Origin: a virus
Reading direction: 5' to 3' (one strand)
Virus record (IMG/VR): IMGVR_UViG_3300042261_000762
Location: 32,001-96,000 of that record
Length of the DNA: 64,000 nt
A program made the position numbers and the translations under genes. The notes under the pieces were generated by a model. It made no database searches. It saw nothing but the letters and a program-made list of their open reading frames with translations, and had not been told where the DNA came from. Shown one piece after another: positions 26,008-45,516 of the stretch (position 1 is the stretch's first letter; every line of letters starts with the position of its first letter).

Positions 26008-27426
26008 GTGATAACTAAGTTTAAATTATTTGAAGCCAATAAGTACACAGACTATGATCCTGATGGTAACTTTAACGTCGGTGATAGAGTCATTGTTAAT
26101 GGTCATTATGTTAATATAACTTTCAAGGGGGAATCAGGAACAATAATTAATTTTTATGAAGCCGGAGATAATAGTAAAAAAAGGGAGATTTTAATTAGAT
26201 TTGACAGTAGATTTAATACAGATTTAATGTCGGGTGATAACAATGAAGATCCAAGTGGGACTTCATATTATGTCACTAGTGATTTGGTAGAATTGGAAGA
26301 TAAAACTCCTGGGAAAATTAAATGGTATAGTAAGGGTCTTTGGGAGAAATATAATGAAATAGATCCATATAATGAAGAAGACTGGGATGACAAGAATCAA
26401 ATATTTGTAATGTATAAAGGTTTTATGGCGGGCGAAGGACAAAGCTATCATTTACATGTAGTTGTTAATAAACATTATGGTGGAAACACAAACGGTCAAT
26501 ATCTTTGGGATGTAGATAAAAGAGGAATGCCTGATGTTGTTAAATGCGTTTCAGTATATGATCCACGTAGACATAAATTTGCTAGTAGTGAAGAAATAGA
26601 GAAATATTTAGATTTAGAAAAATTAGAGTCGGTATTTAATTATAGAAATGGTGAAGTTAGAGAAAGTGTTAAATGGTATAAAAATGGAAATTTTGAAAAT
26701 GAGCCAGAATGTAAACATGGTAAACATGAATATGTATTAACTCAGAAAGCAACATTTGATAAAAACACATTAAAACCATATTATAAAAATGAAATAAAAT
26801 GTAAAAGATGTGGTAGTGTTAAAAAATATTGTAAGCACGCTTGGTCATATTATGATCTAGTTACACAAGATAGGAATGGAAATAATAAAGTAAAACATTT
26901 GTTAAGATGTACCAAATGTGGAGAGTATGAAACAGATTTATCAAAAATGCCAAAAGAAAAGGGTGATAGTTTTTCGACAAAAATTAAAAAAATAATCAAA
27001 AAGAAATAATTGATAACGAAATTCAAAATATTTGAAAATAACACATTTAGTTTTAAGTTGGATGATATTCTATCACGAAATAGAATGCAAACAAATAGTG
27101 AAGCTGATCCTTACGGTGAAGAAGATTGGAATAATATTAATGAGGATTCTATAAAAAAAGAATTGATGGGAATAGTTTTAAATAGACACGTCGAGTTTAG
27201 AACTTTATCATCAGAAGGACCTTTATATAATAAAAAAGTTATCAAGGGTGTTGTTAAAGATGTTATTGTCAAATGGATACCCCATCATCTTGAATATTGG
27301 ATACTTTTTTTAATTAATGGTAAAAATCATTATGTTTATCCTAATTTAGATATAAAAGTTAAAGAAAATTTAATGGAACACATAGATATAGATCCTTATG
27401 GAGAAGAAAAATGGGATGAAGAATGA
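26008..27426 (+). CDS. Two tagged hypothetical proteins (26008-27009, 27010-27426)
   Basis: MITKFKLFE and MITKFKIFE leaders; DPY(G/N)EE tags; (I/V)KWYxxG motifs; Zn-ribbon repeats in the first. Confidence 0.6.
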
Positions 27427-30400
27427 TAAAGAAATTTAAAATATTTAAGATAAATGAAGGAATGTCATTAAATGACATAATATCCAAAGCTGAGAACAAA
27501 GGATACGGTGGAGATATTAGATATATCAAAAAAGATCTAGAGAATAATTTTCTTAATAAAAGAGTCAGAATATATAAAAAAGGCAAACCTTATGTAGAAA
27601 TAGATGTGGGAGCAATAGTTCGCGAAGGATTCACTTTTTATTTTGAGGCGTTGGAAGTTTTAGATATGGGAAATCGCGGCATGTATTGGAATTCTTATTC
27701 AGAAGCTGAGAAAAATACAATGATTGGTTTAGTAAAAGGACAAGATACTATTTTTATAAGAATAGACAGCGACGATGATATAGATATTATTGGTGAAGCG
27801 GATATTAAAAAGATAACAAGAAAGAAAGAACAGAGAAAATTAAGAGAATTAAAAAAAGACGTAGATCCTTATGGTGAAGAAGATTGGGGAGAAGACACTA
27901 ATAAAGTAATATCTAAATATGATATAAATAGCCCAGATGGACAAGAAAATTTATACAAAAAAGGCGAGGAATATGAAATCGAAACAAACGCAATACACGG
28001 TGATCTTATTGGAGTAAAAACAGAATTGTCATTTGGACAAAAATATGTTCATTATTTTAGAAGAGAAGACTTCAATGATTATTTTGATAGAATAACAGAA
28101 TCAATTGAAAATTTAGATCCTTATGGCGAAGAAAATTGGAATGATGATGAATCTCAGCTTTTTTTGGATTCAATTACTCGATACTTAGATATAAATGCAA
28201 AAATACATAATATTAAAGATAAATGGTATATTTATTTTGAAAAAGATGATGAATTTTATAAAATATGCAACAATGACGCTGGAAAAATACTTTTATATAA
28301 TCGCACAAATCATCATTCAATTGAATTAGTTGATAATGATATAGGTACAAAATTCGATTGGCTAAATATTAGATTAGCTATGCAAAAATTAGAACATAAA
28401 AAATCCTATGCAAAATTTCAAAATGAAAAAAGAGATTATAAAGACGTTGATCCTTATGGTGAAGAAATTTGGGCTGAAGAAGATGAATATAATTGGATTT
28501 ATATTAATGATCCATATGCTGAAGATGCTAATCCAACATTGAATTTATTAGAGCAACAAATAGGTAAATTTATTGTATTTAAGATTGATTGGACAAATGA
28601 ATATAAAGAAGGAGTTTTACAATCTGTTATGATTAATGTGCTTGGAGAAATAGAATTGGAGGTTGATAATCATTTTTATCTATTAGACGAAAGAGAAAGA
28701 ATAGGAGTAGCAAAGGAAAATATAATAACGGAACAGTATGATGAACAAGATCCATATGGTGAGGAAATTTGGAATGAAGATCCAAAATTTCAAATAGGAG
28801 ATAGAGTAGAATTTGCAAAAGATCCACCCAATAGATCATATTATTATCTGATTGAAGAATTTTTCCCGGATGATCGATCGTATAGATTGAGCATACACGA
28901 TAAAAATACCAATGAAAGATTTCCTGGTCATGTTTTGATAGATGAATTTAATTTAAAATTAGAAAATATAAAGGAAGAATTCAAGTGGAGAAATAAAAAC
29001 TATATTTATTATACTCAAACATTTATGGATAATAATAAAGTCAATAGAATAATGGAAAAAATTAGTCCTGAATGGATTACTAATAATCCTGTGGCTTTTG
29101 AAACATACAATAATAAATTATACTTAACTGAGGGACATCATAGATTTGAGGCTTGTTTAAGAAAGAATGATAAAAATTTATTAGAAACTTTATTTAAAAC
29201 TGCTTTATATTATCCAGTGAAAAGAGAACCTAGAAAATTTAAGAAAAAATATATTCCTGAAGATATTAAAATGATAAAAGAAAATAAAGAAATAACAGAC
29301 GAAAAGATAAAAGCAACCATTGATTTTATTTCTAAAACAATAAAAGGCACTGAATGGGAAGGTAAAGTTTATATGGCTGGCGGCGGCGTTAGAGACGAAC
29401 TCATGGGCAGAACTTCAAAAGATATAGATTTACTTATTAATGTACCAGACGGCGGAATAAACTTTGCTATATGGTTTACAAAGAAATTGAAAATATACAG
29501 AGAAGATAAAAATCCTGTTATCTATCCAAGATTTGGAACCGCTAAATTTACTCTAAGAAAACAAAAACATAACGGATTAGATTTATCAGGAATTGATATT
29601 GAATGTGTTATGCCAAGAAAAGAAACTTATACTGAAGGAAGTAGAGATCCAGAGGTAAGTCAAGGCACACTTAAAGATGATGTCGATAGGAGAGATTTTA
29701 CAGTTAATAGTTTGTTGAAAGATTTATCTACTGGGGAAATTCTAGACTTAACAGGAATGGGTAAAGAAGATATTAAAAGGGGAATAGTGAGAACTTCACT
29801 TAATCCTGATGTTATTTTTACTGAAGATCCTTTAAGAATGTTAAGAGCTATAAGATTCACAGTTAAATGTGATTGGGATTTACCTTTATTTATGATTAGA
29901 GCCTTAAAGAAGAACGCAAAACAACTTCAAATAATATCTTCAGAGAGAGTTCAAGATGAATTGAACAAAATGTTATTAACAGGTCATCCTGATAAGGCTA
30001 TAAGATTACTTCAGATAACGGGGTTGAGTAAATATATTTTCCCTGAACTTGATAAACTTATAAAAATGAAACAAAACAAGCATCATAAATATGATGCTAT
30101 GCGTCATTCTTTAGAAGTATTAAAGAATACTCCTCCAGATCTTGTAACAAGATTGTCTGCTTTATTACACGATATAGGTAAAAGTAAAACAAGAGAAATA
30201 ATTGATAATGAAGTTCATTTTTATGAGCATGAAAGGATTGGCGCATTTATGGTAAGGGATATATTAAAAAGGTTGAGATATCCAAAAGAAATAATAAATG
30301 CTGTTGTTATTGCAGTTGAAAATCACATGAAAACAAAACAGTCTGGAGATAAGGGAGATTTAAGTGATAGATCTTTAAGAAAATTGAAACAAGATTTGGG

Positions 30401-30737
30401 TCCACATCTTCAACAAACATTAGATTTAATTCACGCTGATAATATATCACATTCAGAAGAATCTAACATGCCAAATCAAGTAACTAATATCTTAAAAAGA
30501 TTTGCTGATTTGGAAGAAAGAGATAAACAAAAACAAAAACCAAATCCTTTAACTGGCAGCGAAGTAATGAAAATACTTGATATTAAAGAAGGACCAAAGG
30601 GTCCAGAAGATTCTAAAATGCGTCCTATTGTAGGAAAAATATTAAGATTATTGGGCGATATGTATTTAGATGACCCACATATGAGTAAAGAAGAATTAAC
30701 TGAAATAGTCAAAAAATCATACGAAGAATATAAATGA
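27423..30737 (+). CDS. cca: Polyprotein: DPYGEE-tagged modules, ParB-like module and C-terminal CCA-adding tRNA nucleotidyltransferase/HD domain
   Basis: GGGVRDELMGRTSKDIDL, RRDFTVNSL, EDPLRMLRAIRF, ERVQDEL, LLHDIGK in the last ~480 aa; LTEGHHRF; four DPYGEExW in the first half. Confidence 0.88.
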   Translation: MIKKFKIFKINEGMSLNDIISKAENKGYGGDIRYIKKDLENNFLNKRVRIYKKGKPYVEIDVGAIVREGFTFYFEALEVLDMGNRGMYWNSYSEAEKNTMIGLVKGQDTIFIRIDSDDDIDIIGEADIKKITRKKEQRKLRELKKDVDPYGEEDWGEDTNKVISKYDINSPDGQENLYKKGEEYEIETNAIHGDLIGVKTELSFGQKYVHYFRREDFNDYFDRITESIENLDPYGEENWNDDESQLFLDSITRYLDINAKIHNIKDKWYIYFEKDDEFYKICNNDAGKILLYNRTNHHSIELVDNDIGTKFDWLNIRLAMQKLEHKKSYAKFQNEKRDYKDVDPYGEEIWAEEDEYNWIYINDPYAEDANPTLNLLEQQIGKFIVFKIDWTNEYKEGVLQSVMINVLGEIELEVDNHFYLLDERERIGVAKENIITEQYDEQDPYGEEIWNEDPKFQIGDRVEFAKDPPNRSYYYLIEEFFPDDRSYRLSIHDKNTNERFPGHVLIDEFNLKLENIKEEFKWRNKNYIYYTQTFMDNNKVNRIMEKISPEWITNNPVAFETYNNKLYLTEGHHRFEACLRKNDKNLLETLFKTALYYPVKREPRKFKKKYIPEDIKMIKENKEITDEKIKATIDFISKTIKGTEWEGKVYMAGGGVRDELMGRTSKDIDLLINVPDGGINFAIWFTKKLKIYREDKNPVIYPRFGTAKFTLRKQKHNGLDLSGIDIECVMPRKETYTEGSRDPEVSQGTLKDDVDRRDFTVNSLLKDLSTGEILDLTGMGKEDIKRGIVRTSLNPDVIFTEDPLRMLRAIRFTVKCDWDLPLFMIRALKKNAKQLQIISSERVQDELNKMLLTGHPDKAIRLLQITGLSKYIFPELDKLIKMKQNKHHKYDAMRHSLEVLKNTPPDLVTRLSALLHDIGKSKTREIIDNEVHFYEHERIGAFMVRDILKRLRYPKEIINAVVIAVENHMKTKQSGDKGDLSDRSLRKLKQDLGPHLQQTLDLIHADNISHSEESNMPNQVTNILKRFADLEERDKQKQKPNPLTGSEVMKILDIKEGPKGPEDSKMRPIVGKILRLLGDMYLDDPHMSKEELTEIVKKSYEEYK

Positions 30738-37594: not shown

Positions 37595-38341
37595 TTATTT
37601 TGCAAATTTAAGTTTTAATACACTTTCCAAGAAATTTGTTCCAGGAAACATTAGATCTATATTCAATAAATAAGAATCCAATTCTTTATCGTAATCATAA
37701 CCACTGAATTGCATTTCATCAAAATTACTAAATAAACTTAAAGCATATTTATATTGAGACTCCTTATCAAAATAAAAGAAATCTTTTTCATTTAAAATAT
37801 AATCTCTAAATATCTGAGTATTAAAATATTGAGATGTAGTAATAAAACTAATTTCATCAAATAGTGACTTGAATCCTTTTTTCAGATATATGTCAAAATC
37901 AAGATCTAGATATTCTATGATATATTTTAGGTTATTAGATATGTTTAGTGGATTTTCTGTAGCTATGTATTTTAGGCCGCTTGGTTCGAGATTCATTCCC
38001 ATTTTATTTAGCATAACATTCATAAGAGTTGGAAGGATGTCCCAACTATAATAGAAGAATGTTGGTATAAATTCGCTGTCTGGAGTAAGAATAAAAACAA
38101 ATCTAAAATCCTTATAATAAAAGTCAACGAATCTGCCTATTTTTTGATATTCATTTGATTTGAATATATCTTCAAGAATTGTTATGTCGGTTTCTTGTGG
38201 TATGATTATTTTAATATAATCAAATAACTGTTTTTCTTTATAAACAAAAGGAATTTCATTACGAATTTCCTTTCCATCTAATTTATCAGAAACTTCTTTA
38301 AGAAGTTTAAGGAATTCAGGTCTTTCCAGTTTCCTGCTCAT
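37595..38341 (-). CDS. Degenerate Pol-beta-superfamily nucleotidyltransferase-like protein
   Basis: Layout IPFVYKEKQLFDYIKII...FYYSW..L..L..KMGM..GL..YLDLD..GF..FITTSQYFN recalls a phage NTase family, but the GDxD residues are missing. Confidence 0.4.
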   Translation of the reverse strand: MSRKLERPEFLKLLKEVSDKLDGKEIRNEIPFVYKEKQLFDYIKIIIPQETDITILEDIFKSNEYQKIGRFVDFYYKDFRFVFILTPDSEFIPTFFYYSWDILPTLMNVMLNKMGMNLEPSGLKYIATENPLNISNNLKYIIEYLDLDFDIYLKKGFKSLFDEISFITTSQYFNTQIFRDYILNEKDFFYFDKESQYKYALSLFSNFDEMQFSGYDYDKELDSYLLNIDLMFPGTNFLESVLKLKFAK

Positions 38342-38547: not shown

Positions 38548-38967
38548 TTATATTTTTTCAATTAACTCATTAAATTTTTCTTCAAATATGATATTATCTG
38601 GTATTTCTTCAATTCTAAACATCATAGCCATTTCCTCGGGAGAATAGAAATTTAAATTTGTGCCTTCGCCTTTGTATGCAATAAAAAAATCTTTATCTGG
38701 ATTCTCCTTTGCAAATACATAAAGTCCATGTATTTCTTGCATTATCTGTCCAACTGTTCTGCTAGGTTGTTTTTTCTTTGTCAAATCTTTTGTTATAATA
38801 GCATAAGATTGTCCTTGCATACCGTGACACCTTCCATATATGGCTCCGAAATTTTGATAAGCATATAGGGCTGCACCTTTACCGTGTCGACCTTCTGTGT
38901 TAGCACCAAATACAAATATTTCATTAGGTAATAATTCTTTTATATCACCTTTATAAGTTCTTCTCAT
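38548..38967 (-). CDS. Macro-like phage protein (IFVFGxNxxGxHGxGAA family)
   Basis: EIFVFGANTEGRHGKGAALYA..FGA.YG..G.QGQSYAI.TK. Confidence 0.75.
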   Translation of the reverse strand: MRRTYKGDIKELLPNEIFVFGANTEGRHGKGAALYAYQNFGAIYGRCHGMQGQSYAIITKDLTKKKQPSRTVGQIMQEIHGLYVFAKENPDKDFFIAYKGEGTNLNFYSPEEMAMMFRIEEIPDNIIFEEKFNELIEKI

Positions 38968-38969
38968 TT

Positions 38970-39506
38970 TTAATCCTCCCAAATTTCTTCACCATAAGGA
39001 TCTAAATCTGATATTATTTGTCCTCTTGGCTCTTCTGGTTCATTATTATTATATTTAAAATCTAAGTATGCCAAATGTCCAACTGGAGCTGACATAGGTT
39101 TAACAGCAACTAAATCAAGTCCAATAGTTTTAGCCGCCACTTTCATGGAAAGTGGTAATAACCCTTCGTTACAATCACGAATAGATGTTCCTTCATCATC
39201 CCAGTTTTCCTCACCGTAAGGATCTATTTCTGATATTTTTTGTCCTTTTGGTTCTTGGTGTGCATCCCAATAAGGGTCATAAGATCCAAAATAACCATTA
39301 ATATCATCTATAACTGGATTCTCACTCGGTTTAACCTTTACTAGATCAAGCCCAATAGTTTGCTTAGCTTTATTCCAAGTGTCAGCATTAATATTATCAT
39401 TCCAATCATCGTAGAAATTCCTCCACTCTGGTGATATACCAAGTTTGCTCCACCTATCTATTACTTCTTGGCGGGTATCTTTAATTTTCCCATTGTTCTT
39501 CTCCAT
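38970..39506 (-). CDS. Major-capsid-protein fragment (gp23-like N-proximal region) with two DPYGEE tags
   Basis: LLPLSMKVAAKTIGLDLVAVKPMSAPVGHLAYLDFKY parallels the gp23 IAFDICGVQPMxxPTG region (recalled). Confidence 0.7.
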   Translation of the reverse strand: MEKNNGKIKDTRQEVIDRWSKLGISPEWRNFYDDWNDNINADTWNKAKQTIGLDLVKVKPSENPVIDDINGYFGSYDPYWDAHQEPKGQKISEIDPYGEENWDDEGTSIRDCNEGLLPLSMKVAAKTIGLDLVAVKPMSAPVGHLAYLDFKYNNNEPEEPRGQIISDLDPYGEEIWED

Positions 39507-39855
39507 ATGGATCTAAATCTGAATATACTCTTTTTATTTCTTTTCTTGGAGTTCTAACTAAATGTTCTACCTCTCTTTTAATTATATCTCTTAAATTAGA
39601 TCTTACATCTATATTAAAGTAAGATCTCATATCTTCTAACATACTCCTATTAACAGAACAACTTATTTCTCTTCCGTCCAATAGTCTGATCCTCATTCTT
39701 GGAGCCCATGTAGCCTCACTAATCATTTGAACAGACTGTATTCCATATTCTATCATTTCTTCTTCAGAGAATAAAGAATTATCTTTACTTGTAGTTTTCT
39801 CTATAACAGGTTTTGACTGTTCTTTATATCTTTCCCAATTATTAAAAAAATTCAT
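39481..39855 (-). CDS. Major-capsid-protein fragment chimera with DPYGEE tag
   Basis: QSVQMISEATWAPRM and MLEDMRSYFNIDVRSNLRDIIKRE (cf. gp23 ELAQDLRAVHGMDADAEL..E, recalled). Confidence 0.55.
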   Translation of the reverse strand: MNFFNNWERYKEQSKPVIEKTTSKDNSLFSEEEMIEYGIQSVQMISEATWAPRMRIRLLDGREISCSVNRSMLEDMRSYFNIDVRSNLRDIIKREVEHLVRTPRKEIKRVYSDLDPYGEEQWEN

Positions 39856-39856
39856 A

Positions 39857-40111
39857 TTATTCCTCCCAATCTTCTTCTCCAAAAGGATCTAGTTCAGAAT
39901 ATATCCTTTTTATTTCTTTTTGTTTTGACGGAATATTTATTGTAGAATAAAATCTATTATCTATCATAGTTGTTGCATACCTAGATTTAATAGTCTTCTT
40001 TGGAATATTAGTTGAAACATCCACAACTTCACATGGTTTATAAGGCATGTAAACATAACCTTGATTATTTTTTATCCTTTCCATCTCTAGTCTATACATA
40101 TTATAACTCAT
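39857..40111 (-). CDS. Major-capsid-protein C-terminal fragment with DPFGEE tag
   Basis: GYVYMPY...PKKTIKSRYA..IDNRFYSTI (cf. gp23 GIYYAPY...PVMGFKTRYG, recalled). Confidence 0.7.
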   Translation of the reverse strand: MSYNMYRLEMERIKNNQGYVYMPYKPCEVVDVSTNIPKKTIKSRYATTMIDNRFYSTINIPSKQKEIKRIYSELDPFGEEDWEE

Positions 40112-40114
40112 AAT

Positions 40115-40309
40115 TTAATCCTCCCAATCTTCTTCCCCAAAAGGATCTAAGTCTGAATATACTCTCTTTATTTCCTTTTCTGGCATACTGTGTAATACTG
40201 AATATTCTCTAATCCATGCCATTTTTTCTTCGTCTGTTATTTTAAGTTTGCGTTCTTGCGGTAAAACCCAACTCTTTACAGCTTTTTCTTTATCTATAAT
40301 TAAATACAT
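40115..40309 (-). CDS. Putative capsid-protein N-terminal fragment with DPFGEE tag
   Basis: IDKEKAVKSW...AWIREYSVLH resembles the KW-P-L start of gp23-type propeptides. Confidence 0.45.
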   Translation of the reverse strand: MYLIIDKEKAVKSWVLPQERKLKITDEEKMAWIREYSVLHSMPEKEIKRVYSDLDPFGEEDWED

Positions 40310-40312
40310 AAA

Positions 40313-40699
40313 TTAATCCTCCCAATCTTCTTCGCCATAAGGATCTAAATCTGTAAATTTTTGACCCTTTGGTACATGAGTACTATTATTGCTTATTCCT
40401 CCTGTTCCACTTGATCCACTTACTCCATGAGGACTACAAGAATAATAAGGTCTCCCTATTCCGGCAACTCCTGATGTTCCGCTAGTGCCTACTGCACCAC
40501 TCATTCCCATTTTAGCCTTACTAAATCCTGGATCTGCCACTATATCGTAAGATAATATTTTGTGGGATTTAATATATCTATCTACTACTTCTCCTACTCC
40601 TCTACTACAAACAACAAAATTAGCAGGCGCTGTTCTGCCAGCCTCTGATATTATATTAGAAGCTTCAAGTATCTTGCCTACTAATTTTTTGTTGTTCAT
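40313..40699 (-). CDS. Major-capsid-protein central fragment, Gly/Ser linker and DPYGEE tag
   Basis: KLVGKILEASNIISEAGRTAPANFVVCSRGV (cf. gp23 QIDKEAVEIARQTGRGEGNFIIASRNV, recalled). Confidence 0.7.
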   Translation of the reverse strand: MNNKKLVGKILEASNIISEAGRTAPANFVVCSRGVGEVVDRYIKSHKILSYDIVADPGFSKAKMGMSGAVGTSGTSGVAGIGRPYYSCSPHGVSGSSGTGGISNNSTHVPKGQKFTDLDPYGEEDWED

Positions 40700-41058
40700 A
40701 ATTCTATACTTCCTATCCCCTCATTCCTATCTATACATATTGCTGTAGCCGAATTAGACCCGTCTGATTTCTTATCATTTATAACTATTCTCTCACCTCT
40801 ACCTAATCCCATAACAAGTTGATCATATACAACACCAGATTCAGCTAATTGTTTAATAGTAAAATCTCTTAAACATTCCCTTCTTCCTGTAGTTATAACA
40901 ACATAATAACCAGCCACTTCCCATTCGTCTAATTTTTCTTTAACTCCAGGTAAAAGAACTGTTTCATTATCTTTCAAGGATGACGAATGTCCTCCGTGAT
41001 GTTTTAATAAACATCCGTCTATGTCTAGAAAAATTACTTTACTACTATAATCTATCAT
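40696..41058 (-). CDS. Small HAD-family phosphatase
   Basis: FLDIDG, ITTGR, YDQLVMG, INDK. Confidence 0.8.
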   Translation of the reverse strand: MIDYSSKVIFLDIDGCLLKHHGGHSSSLKDNETVLLPGVKEKLDEWEVAGYYVVITTGRRECLRDFTIKQLAESGVVYDQLVMGLGRGERIVINDKKSDGSNSATAICIDRNEGIGSIEL

Positions 41059-42191
41059 TTATCTTTAAATTCTTTTTTATCTACTGATTGATAAAACTTA
41101 GAAAAATCGAAATATTTATCAAATACATTTCTAATTTCCTCATAAGTCAGAGTTGGTAATATTTTCTCTAAAGAGAACTTATCCATCTCTATAAATTTAT
41201 ATCCATTATTATGTAATAAGATGTTTTCTTTTTCGTATTTATTTTGATAGTATTTCTTAGTTATTTCAAATCTTTCCCTTGTTAAATATTTATCTGGATT
41301 ATCTAATATATTCTTTATTAATTCCTGAACTTTATCTACATTCTTATTTGAAGTTACAGTCTCAAATATAGCTATGGCAGAATTATTAGTTACTTCTCTA
41401 TTATAACAATGAACAAAATACACAAGCCCGTGCTTCTCTCTTATTTCTTGATAAAGAGGAGATTTCAATCCGCCACCTAACATTCTTGTTATGAATTGAA
41501 GATGTGGGAAATGATCATGTATAATTGGTGATAAGTTAATAATAGAAGATTTATCTTTATAACTATTTCCTTTTTCATATATGAAATCGTTATCTACATT
41601 AAGAACTAACTCTTTATCTTCATAGGTTCTATTATCAAATTCCACTTTAGAGAAGAATTCTTCTGTCTTTTTATCTGTGCTTTTTGATACGTCTACAATC
41701 ATAGTTGGTTTTCTGTATTGTAGTTCAAAGAAATCCTGACAATCTTTTAATGTTAGACCTTCTAAATCTTCTAGTAATCCTATTGCTTCATAATAACCAT
41801 ATAATTTTCTAAAAAGATTTTGACCGTGAGCGTCTGATTGTTTATTGAAAGAATCTTTATATTCTTCTATAACAATTTTTTTCTCATTTTGAAATTGCTC
41901 TTCAGTGATATTGAAATTCTGAAGATGTTCGAAGAATTTCTTTTTCCATCTTTTAACATTTTTATCCATTCCAGTCATATAAAATACAATCTCTTTGTCT
42001 GAAGTATATGCATTCCAATGTATAGCATCTCTTTCGAAATCTTCCATTAGACTATCTATTCCTTTACATACAAGGTGTTCCATTATGTGTGAAATACCAT
42101 AGATTCCTTTATGTTCATTCATTGTGCTTCCATAATAAGCAATGTAAAACCCAGATAAGGGTGTTGGTGATTTGATTTTCTTATAATTCAT
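41055..42191 (-). CDS. M16 (insulinase-family) zinc peptidase
   Basis: GISHIMEH (inverted HxxEH), NAYTS, EKKIVIEE, SPLYQEIREKHGLVY. Confidence 0.9.
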   Translation of the reverse strand: MNYKKIKSPTPLSGFYIAYYGSTMNEHKGIYGISHIMEHLVCKGIDSLMEDFERDAIHWNAYTSDKEIVFYMTGMDKNVKRWKKKFFEHLQNFNITEEQFQNEKKIVIEEYKDSFNKQSDAHGQNLFRKLYGYYEAIGLLEDLEGLTLKDCQDFFELQYRKPTMIVDVSKSTDKKTEEFFSKVEFDNRTYEDKELVLNVDNDFIYEKGNSYKDKSSIINLSPIIHDHFPHLQFITRMLGGGLKSPLYQEIREKHGLVYFVHCYNREVTNNSAIAIFETVTSNKNVDKVQELIKNILDNPDKYLTRERFEITKKYYQNKYEKENILLHNNGYKFIEMDKFSLEKILPTLTYEEIRNVFDKYFDFSKFYQSVDKKEFKDK

Positions 42192-44529: not shown

Positions 44530-45516
44530 TTAATTTTTTATTTTTTCGTTTAATTCTAATAATCGATTAAACATATTAATTCTGAATATATCAGATATTC
44601 TTTTTATAAATTTATCATATTTGATATTATCAACATAATGTTGGAACATTCCAATGTCCAATTTGTCTTCTGGTATTCTTGACATTCTGTTCATATTTTT
44701 TTCAAGCCATTTGACAGAATCTAACTCTATATTCTTTTTTTGTGATGTTACTGTATCATATAAATGGGCGCTTTCAGCCATCTTAAATTTCTCATAAGAC
44801 TCTTTTAACTCTTCAACATATGATGTATGATAATATTCGCCGCCATCGGTATATGAAAAATATAAAATTTGAGAATCTTTCAAGAATCTTCTCAAATTAT
44901 CATTATCTGGATGTTGAATCCATGTATTTTCATTTTCCGCTGGCTTTACTATCATCGTTATTGGATCTAAAGAAGAGATATCAATGATGTTTTTTTGTTT
45001 ATCATCGTATATTACTTCATAAGCCAGATACCCGTCTATTAATAATACTTTAATTGTATGATAAAAGCTAATATCTTCAACATCTACAATTTTTCTTATT
45101 GGGTCATATTTCGGATGACTATAGAATCCTTTTATGCTATCCCATATATCATCTGTTACAATATCAATAAAATTTTTAATTTCGTCTTTTATTGATAATT
45201 GCCTTAATGTTTTTCTTTTTTCTAAATAAGTTCTATCTCTATAATCGATTGAAGATTTTCTATTATAAGATTCTTCTATTATGGATATTTTTGTTTTGGA
45301 TTGTAAAGCGTTAATTCTTTTATTTATAGTTTTACCTAATTTGTCTAGATATTTTTCTTCATCCCCATAATCTTTTACGACTGTTTGAGTGATGCCCACA
45401 TCCCATCCGTTTTCTTTTAGATATTCATTTATTAAATAAATTATTGTCGATTTTCCGGTATTAGACCAACCTTTAACAACGATCGACAGTTCGTTGATTT
45501 CTTTCTCTTTTTTCAT
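44530..45516 (-). CDS. P-loop segment fused to an internally deleted gp20-like portal protein
   Basis: GWSNTGKST; then LIDGYLAYEVIYDDKQKNI..LDPITM, SYVEEL..Y..K..E, VKWL...MSRIP, IKYDKFIKRI, matching the order of gp20 blocks (recalled). Confidence 0.65.
   Translation of the reverse strand: MKKEKEINELSIVVKGWSNTGKSTIIYLINEYLKENGWDVGITQTVVKDYGDEEKYLDKLGKTINKRINALQSKTKISIIEESYNRKSSIDYRDRTYLEKRKTLRQLSIKDEIKNFIDIVTDDIWDSIKGFYSHPKYDPIRKIVDVEDISFYHTIKVLLIDGYLAYEVIYDDKQKNIIDISSLDPITMIVKPAENENTWIQHPDNDNLRRFLKDSQILYFSYTDGGEYYHTSYVEELKESYEKFKMAESAHLYDTVTSQKKNIELDSVKWLEKNMNRMSRIPEDKLDIGMFQHYVDNIKYDKFIKRISDIFRINMFNRLLELNEKIKN

Follow-up and report, generated by a model that had tools for sequence, protein, structure and literature searches.

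The 64,000-nucleotide window analysed here spans bases 32001-96000 of the 104,107-bp IMG/VR viral contig IMGVR_UViG_3300042261_000762, and the subject of this report is an array of five short genes, O5 to O1, that fills window positions 38970-40699. The contig has a G+C content of ~29% and an estimated completeness of ~32% (CheckV), and the DNA around the array is ~76% identical to LR756501, a complete 735-kb Mahaphage-clade genome; the largest phages of this clade have Bacteroidetes as their predicted hosts (PMC7162821). To judge from its sequence, the contig is a fragment of a Mahaphage-type huge phage.

Five tandem genes end in a common tag

As described in an initial annotation, the five open reading frames (ORFs) are co-oriented and end in a common tail. 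All lie on the minus strand and are transcribed in the order O5 (40313..40699, 128 aa), O4 (40115..40309, 64 aa), O3 (39857..40111, 84 aa), O2 (39481..39855) and O1 (38970..39506, 178 aa). O2 encodes 124 aa from an ATG at 39855 or 133 aa from the TTG at 39882 chosen by the ORF caller; the ATG is most likely the true start, and the TTG falls inside the tag of O3. Each ORF ends in (KEIKR[VI]YS or P[KR]GQxxx)[DE]LDP[YF]GEExWE[DEN] followed by TAA, so that every gene has its own C-terminal copy of what we refer to as the tag. The genes are closely spaced, with junctions that read TAA-TTT-ATG, TAA-ATT-ATG and, between O3 and O2, TAA-T-ATG. O1 starts at an ATG within the O2 tag, read in another frame, and overlaps O2 by 26 nt; the overlap recurs in the distant family member P0005.

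O5, O4 and O3 share one frame with a single TAA between them, and O2 and O1 occupy other frames. A read-through polyprotein or recoded stops were considered and rejected; neither the contig nor LR756501 yielded a tRNA that reads TAA, the latter having just two tRNA-CUA genes. We read the five ORFs as separate genes.

The gene bodies are pieces of the major capsid protein

A full-length capsid gene is absent from the 104-kb contig. As a reference we used the major capsid protein (MCP) of LR756501, whose 608-aa frame truly begins at Met26, making the protein 583 aa long, together with a profile hidden Markov model (HMM) built from 28 full-length MCPs of the clade fetched from IMG/VR. All five ORFs matched this HMM, with per-sequence E-values of 4e-25 for O1, 3e-12 for O4, 4e-9 for O2 (in two domains), 6e-8 for O5 (at HMM positions 426-462) and 1.7e-4 for O3, and alignment to the full LR756501 MCP gave shuffle z-scores of 22, 15, 8.2, 7.5 and 4.0 for O1, O4, O2, O5 and O3, respectively. 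By both measures the five bodies derive from the MCP, far beyond chance, as had been proposed when they were first described as pieces of a gp23-family capsid protein.

In Pfam, three of the ORFs matched Gp23 (PF07068) below its gathering cut-off of 24.4 bits: O1 at profile positions 5-48 (E 9e-5, 22.4 bits), O3 at 314-356 (E 0.008, 16.1 bits) and O5 at 222-256 (E 0.047, 13.5 bits). Each match spans at most 44 of the 376 profile positions, and O2 and O4 had no PF07068 match in this search. The T4 gp23 motifs that the initial annotation had cited do lie in the regions it named (IAFDICGVQPM at 107, QDLRAVHGMD at 276, EIARQTGRGEGNFIIAS at 363, YYAPYV at 449 and KTRYG at 474), and the ORFs align there, the direct alignment to T4 gp23 being weak (z 0.3-3.3). 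A Protein Data Bank entry, T4 gp23* (5vf3), aligns with the lineage MCP at E 1e-4.

We mapped the pieces in the numbering of the 583-aa MCP, with O2 residues numbered on its 133-aa form and structural elements taken from an AlphaFold2 model of the MCP (mean pLDDT 67). O5 residues 4-39 correspond to MCP 434-469, a helix-strand-helix element of the A domain. Residues 47-64 of the same protein correspond to positions 149-166 of the prohead protease, part of the S77 protease-scaffold fusion protein of LR756501, with 72% identity, and a Gly/Ser-rich linker separates the O5 pieces from the tag; the capsid piece had been recognised before, whereas the protease piece, a single strand, was missing from that description. 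O4 residues 1-44 correspond to MCP 1-43, the entire two-helix propeptide (43% identity, E 1.6e-10), which bears out an earlier guess that this gene carries a propeptide start. The MCP part of O4 stops exactly at the Glu of the propeptide LxE-type cleavage site (MCP consensus ...LNE, then NV...), a position that fits the rule given for gp21 cleavage in T4, and is followed directly by the extended tag KEIKRVYSDLDPFGEEDWED.

O3 residues 15-50 cover MCP 527-562, the C-terminal beta-hairpin (GYVYMPY...KSRYA), and lead into the tag. In O2, residues 49-66 represent MCP 537-554, again from the C-terminal hairpin (ISEATWAPRM, 78% identity), and residues 72-109 represent the spine helix, MCP 341-378, followed by the tag; the internal order is thus reversed relative to the MCP. 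The spine helix had been noted before, but the hairpin, which is the strongest MCP piece of this gene, had been overlooked. O1 carries the N-arm helix and first strand twice, as had been claimed, first as a variant (residues 47-85, MCP 94-132) followed by an internal tag and then at residues 102-154 (MCP 71-124) followed by the C-terminal tag. This region is the equivalent of T4 "Gol": O1 113-156 matches positions 5-48 of Pfam Gp23, and O1 128-155 aligns with T4 gp23 107-134.

Read along the operon, the pieces follow the order 434-469, 1-43, 527-562, 537-554 then 341-378, 94-132 and 71-124 in MCP residues. On this map the arrangement is a non-collinear mosaic, scrambled even within one gene, in keeping with the original description. 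The pieces are 18-55 residues long, the size of single secondary-structure units, their boundaries follow such units in the MCP model, and their identity to the MCP ranges from 24 to 78%. Like microProteins, O1-O5 are small and homologous to only short segments of larger proteins of the lineage, and the full-length parents of the pieces were identified in LR756501.

The tag is used throughout the genome

The five ORFs hold six copies of the tag (D-P-[YF]-G-E-E-x-W), all on the minus strand. Five are the C-termini of O5 (DLDPYGEEDWED, 40316..40351), O4 (DLDPFGEEDWED, 40118..40153), O3 (ELDPFGEEDWEE, 39860..39895), O2 (DLDPYGEEQWEN, 39484..39519, the copy that contains the O1 ATG) and O1 (DLDPYGEEIWED, 38973..39008), and the sixth, EIDPYGEENWDD (39195..39230), lies inside O1 between its two N-arm pieces.

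The initial annotation treated this tail as a mark of the five genes, which does not hold. The motif DP[YF]GEEx[WLY] occurs in ~40 copies in ~27 ORFs of the contig, at C-termini, right after N-terminal leaders and in linkers, and its carriers in the window span 12048-61360 on both strands. In LR756501, 89 ORFs carry a total of 103 copies, of which 41 are C-terminal, and the extended consensus is K-x-x-K-R-V-F-S-E-L-DPYGEE-x-W-[ED]-[DE]. Given its presence on so many ORFs of both genomes, the tag gives no particular pointer to capsid biology; its distribution marks it as a portable, acidic peptide used lineage-wide. At the DNA level the copies are mutually similar. Several carriers begin MIKKFKIFE(Q), with the tag within ~15 residues after this leader, and in a 1104-aa protein (window 27423-30737) a CCA-adding/HD enzyme is preceded by four tags.

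An origin of the tag as a copy of the MCP hairpin VDPYMRWDD was considered and rejected, as a search with a profile of all 103 tags failed to recover the MCP (E >60). One tblastn row places the O4 tail and the O3 body collinear with MCP 518-587, and the T4 stretch RVY..IDQY lines up with the tail RVYSDLDP at a z-score of -0.7.

The array genes are conserved, variable in number and constrained

The orthologous locus lies between a HAD gene and a conserved 248-aa gene. At this position LR756501 has two genes, of 78 and 101 aa, nine tagged genes are found on the IMG/VR contig that underlies L013, and the relatives L009 and L011/L012 have no such genes. O3 is orthologous to the 78-aa gene in LR756501 and to an 84-aa gene in L013, and O2 has three homologues. 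A homologue search with O4 returned O4 alone, its 81-aa relative in L013 being known from synteny only, and orthologues of O1, O2 and O4 are absent from the complete genome LR756501. The O1 family comprises about eleven clusters at E <=1e-30 among 1.84 billion representatives. Eight aligned members of this family, which are 42-48% identical to O1, share a common plan of N-terminal piece, tag, N-arm piece and tag, in which the N-arm motif and both tags are invariant.

Estimates of dN/dS (NG86) across relatives, for which dS is saturated, were 0.24-0.60 for the array genes and 0.04-0.14 for flanking genes; the least saturated pair gave 0.28 at a dS of 0.76. Array dN was 2-5 times that of the flanking genes. 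We also asked how many residues invariant in 34 MCPs are kept by each piece. O4 retains 5/5, including the cleavage-type Glu, O1 19/23 and 12/15, O5 4/7, O3 7/14, and O2 5/5 in its hairpin piece and 4/12 in the other, for a total of 56/81. Against an overall identity of 24-78%, invariant residues are retained preferentially. The array genes are intact, translationally coupled and, as the dN/dS values below 1 indicate, under purifying selection. Together with the orthologues in L013 and LR756501 and the retained MCP-invariant residues, this agrees with the earlier view that the array is not simply a decayed capsid gene.

Fragment genes with other parents and in other genomes

Searching LR756501 with the MCP profile revealed ten further small ORFs, dispersed over the genome, tagged and untagged, that jointly cover nearly the whole MCP. 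An all-against-all comparison of the same genome assigned six fragment ORFs to the MCP and three each to the protease-scaffold protein, the portal and a 1755-aa protein; of these four top parents, the first three are encoded by adjacent head genes. Examples include a tagged truncated protease domain, a tagged ORF with scaffold repeats and a bit of propeptide, and an ORF in which portal motifs surround a tag in scrambled order. Portal pieces and scaffold repeats joined to the tag were found in LR756501, L132 and L134, and a prohead-protease piece like that of O5 is also found in L013.

Tail proteins are represented as well. One L013 array gene copies tail-sheath residues 1181-1256, a C-terminal piece. 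In LR756501, a 456-aa PolB-like protein (497197-498567, minus strand) contains three such elements: a tag at residue 114, the tail-sheath-like N-terminal peptide KSPGIFVTEIDNS and, at residues 338-377, a piece of the MCP N-arm. Outside the lineage, many phage clusters encode stand-alone N-arm proteins of 90-140 aa with unrelated basic helical tails. Since these carry different C-terminal tails, the payload is kept while the tail changes.

Untagged relatives of head proteins were also observed. A 328-aa gene at window 44530-45516 (minus strand), in the operon of the array and 4 kb upstream of it, is a paralogue of the N-terminal half of the portal: its residues 87-252 share 46% identity with the T4-type portal of LR756501 (residues 82-268), and the gene is itself conserved in that genome, at 342 aa. 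An untagged 196-aa "mini-MCP" (LR756501 276342-276932, minus strand; L007:1390-1980) joins, collinearly, residues 22-121 (propeptide/N-arm), 366-410 (spine helix) and 559-584 (C-terminal strands) of the MCP frame, and has a paralogue at LR756501 565330-565899. Outside the window, contig positions 7440-7490 (minus strand) match residues 70-86 of the MCP frame at 10/17 residues (NQNGMGR..AP) and may be a further capsid fragment. Our searches of the literature, which covered Mahaphage, the DPYGEE motif and capsid proteins that are truncated or act as decoys, yielded no description of such a gene design.

Genomic surroundings

The array is part of a tightly packed minus-strand unit that runs from window ~47964 to 36002 and also encodes a thymidine kinase, a GMP-reductase-like gene, a macro-like gene, an M16 peptidase and a HAD gene; this unit is not a virion module. 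The HAD-type phosphatase gene (40696-41058, minus strand) lies directly upstream of O5 and overlaps its start by 4 nt, and it is in turn overlapped by 4 nt by the gene for the M16 peptidase (41055-42191, minus strand; HxxEH). These two genes (40696..42191) anchor the synteny with L013 and LR756501. In both of those genomes, a gene for a LAGLIDADG-type homing endonuclease is present at the junction of the M16 and HAD genes (L002:9069-9869, minus strand; L013:2489-3301, plus strand); it is absent from the window, and could drive turnover of the locus.

A 144-aa gene (38548-38982, minus strand) matches PHROG 2072 (E 1.5e-34, function unknown) and shows ~68% DNA identity with Bacteroides phage genes and a crAss-like phage. 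The conserved 248-aa gene directly downstream of the array (37595-38341, minus strand) shares 75% identity with its counterpart in LR756501. Its PHROG match to DNA polymerase is weak (E 2e-5) and Pfam gives none; it too may be a shortened version of some core protein.

Translation genes are abundant on the contig, which has 40 tRNA genes. The two tRNA-CUA genes of LR756501 lie at 690585-690738 and have an anticodon that reads TAG, and TAG is the stop codon of 4/81 long ORFs on the contig; together these may reflect late TAG recoding as in Lak phages. A scan for sigma-70 promoters and terminators gave signals not above chance. A conserved element, TGGAAAAAA-N-TGAC-T-rich-AAATATATAA, precedes the MCP start by ~20-30 nt in L064, L066, L040, L075 and others. 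As it occurs at only three sites in LR756501 (76386, 188527 and 207550), it may be a special strong promoter.

Possible roles of the array

We tentatively favour the view that the array products are tagged interface mimics that engage head assembly, which we regard as possible rather than probable. It is suggested by bodies that are too short and too scrambled for a capsid fold and yet keep residues that the MCP cannot change. In its favour we also count the match of all five bodies to the clade MCP, the piece boundaries, the purifying selection on intact and coupled genes, the use of other self-assembling virion proteins in the same design, and the N-arm mini-proteins with different tails in other phage clusters. 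The five genes would represent a lineage-specific class of small "collage" proteins, each made of one to three head-protein pieces joined by low-complexity linkers, with the portable DPYGEExW sequence as a putative docking tag at the end. On the simplest reading, each piece would act in a microProtein-like manner and bind whatever its parent segment contacts, which could be an adjacent subunit, the core of scaffold and protease, or a protein involved in folding or assembly. The tag would couple all collage proteins to one common reader. The net effect, whether helpful or inhibitory, might be to hold, steer or accompany head-assembly subunits, with the proteins serving as assembly modulators or as prohead-core passengers.

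Several observations weigh against this interpretation. The array sits among nucleotide-metabolism and accessory genes outside the head module, and the tag is also found on a CCA-adding enzyme and many ORFans, so that a link to the head is not required. The number of genes at the locus is 0, 2, 5 or 9 among close relatives and LR756501 lacks O1, O2 and O4, which suggests accessory genes of an arms race rather than core assembly factors. Saturation of dS leaves the dN/dS values rough, and the spine helix and the A-domain element are buried parts of the fold and not obvious subunit interfaces. A complex prediction for the MCP and O1, which scored 0.01 against a mark of 0.32 with the fold of O1 itself uncertain, speaks neither for nor against the proposal.

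A broader proposal, which we hold to be somewhat unlikely, is that huge phages possess a set of addressable mini-proteins which between them present almost all conserved segments of the capsid, protease-scaffold, portal and sheath, each coupled to a lineage-specific docking tag. Such a library would be a general, hitherto unrecognised means to control self-assembly of the giant virion or to defeat host sensors of virion proteins, with the payload conserved across lineages and the tag and its reader swapped.

The points on turnover and location would also suit immune decoys or baits, whereby fragments copying the most conserved core parts of the virion soak up or mislead bacterial sensors, perhaps positioned through the tag. 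The parents (MCP, portal, sheath, protease and a PolB-like gene next door to the array) are core phage proteins of the kind sensed by CapRel, Lit and Avs-type receptors, genes turn over quickly between relatives and evolve 2-5 times faster than their flanks, and the array is placed among accessory and metabolic genes, away from the head genes. We nevertheless consider this explanation unlikely. Avs-type sensors are reported to read conserved folds across extended surfaces, not short linear pieces (bioRxiv 10.64898/2026.01.04.697583), and pieces of 18-55 residues cannot reproduce such interfaces. For Lit, the one known peptide-level sensor, the isolated Gol region of T4 bound to EF-Tu promotes cleavage and so activates rather than blocks the response (PMC3014915); O1 has two such regions. 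None of the five ORFs matched known anti-defence families.

It seems improbable that the genes are weapons of interference, with dominant-negative pieces that poison head or tail assembly of co-infecting relatives or satellites in the way of Gag-derived restriction factors. The clade-wide invariant MCP residues kept by the pieces could allow them to engage the proteins of relatives, several related huge phages occur in the same samples, and the repertoire is variable; however, the pieces are at least as close to the MCP of their own lineage as to any other, and self-poisoning would have to be avoided.

Takeover of host translation, in which free tagged N-arm copies would bind or redirect EF-Tu as T4 Gol does, concerns O1 at least and is given little credence here. 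Gol binds domains II/III of EF-Tu and inhibits its GTPase. O1 residues 128-155 align with T4 gp23 107-134, stand-alone N-arm copies are the most widespread type of fragment, the contig is rich in translation and tRNA genes, and Gol has been called in review the most conserved region of gp23, which may bind the EF-Tu of all hosts. Against this, the mechanism accounts for one gene of five, and the alignment of O1 to T4 itself is weak (z 3.3).

We likewise doubt that the array is functionless debris, left by ectopic recombination at the ~100 tag-coding sites that scattered pieces of highly expressed genes: the scrambled mosaic order, the dispersed fragments in LR756501, the variable copy number and the similar tag DNA, which could serve as microhomology, would be expected of it, but at least four genomes have the ORFs intact and coupled, motifs are invariant in family members just 42-48% identical to O1, dN/dS stays under 1, and other lineages carry this payload with tails of unrelated sequence.

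Were the interface-mimic reading correct, the array would be the first natural phage case of a virus regulating or protecting the assembly of its capsid, portal and sheath by tagged peptide copies. It would bear on how capsids for genomes of 0.5-0.7 Mb are built without runaway mis-assembly, and would mark short segments of an HK97-type shell protein that are sufficient for binding. As decoys, by contrast, the genes would show what the immunity of Bacteroidetes hosts reads in core virion proteins. Either way, a conserved payload with interchangeable lineage-specific tags points to a putative docking system that serves about a tenth of the proteome.

Comparison with known systems

Between them, the array genes represent the propeptide, N-arm, spine helix, A-domain element and C-terminal hairpin of gp23 (PF07068) and of the 583-aa lineage MCP. 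The ORFs are nevertheless not capsid proteins, as their 18-55-residue pieces fall below the Pfam cut-off and cannot form an HK97-like fold.

The internal proteins of T-even phages (IPI-III and Alt) offer a likeness in organisation, being small genes with variable bodies and one common short label, the capsid targeting sequence (CTS) MKTYQEFIAE, and their loci are polymorphic. The T4 CTS sits at the N-terminus, directs internal proteins into the prohead core and is removed by cleavage at L/I-x-E. The array label is acidic, is found at C-termini, N-termini or in linkers, and shows no sequence likeness to the CTS. No N-terminal leader of the CTS type (~10 residues, L/I-x-E) is shared among the five ORFs, and the MIKKFKIFE leader of other tagged ORFs on the contig is absent from O1-O5. 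Unlike the array proteins, T4 internal proteins are not capsid fragments. The prohead-core proteins gp67 and gp68 of T4 are also small, acidic and related to head assembly, but they are encoded inside the head module and lack such a tag. A suspected resemblance of gp67/gp68 to gp23 was not supported (best z 3.0 against gp23, gp22, gp21, gp20 and gp24).

MicroProteins such as Id and LITTLE ZIPPER, and capsid-derived restriction factors such as Fv1 and enJS56A1, copy an interaction segment and form non-productive or regulatory complexes. Like them, the array genes encode small copies of only a presumed interaction segment of a larger protein; unlike the array, these systems are eukaryotic, usually consist of one folded domain, have no shared docking tag and form no scrambled mosaics.

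The nearest phage precedent for the payload of O1 is the interplay of T4 Gol, EF-Tu and the Lit protease of e14 (PMC3014915). There a short peptide is biologically active when free; it derives from the N-terminal stretch of gp23 that is most conserved, and O1 carries the equivalent of that stretch twice. In T4 that region resides within gp23, as a liability that triggers host suicide, whereas here it is borne by separate, conserved and tagged genes.

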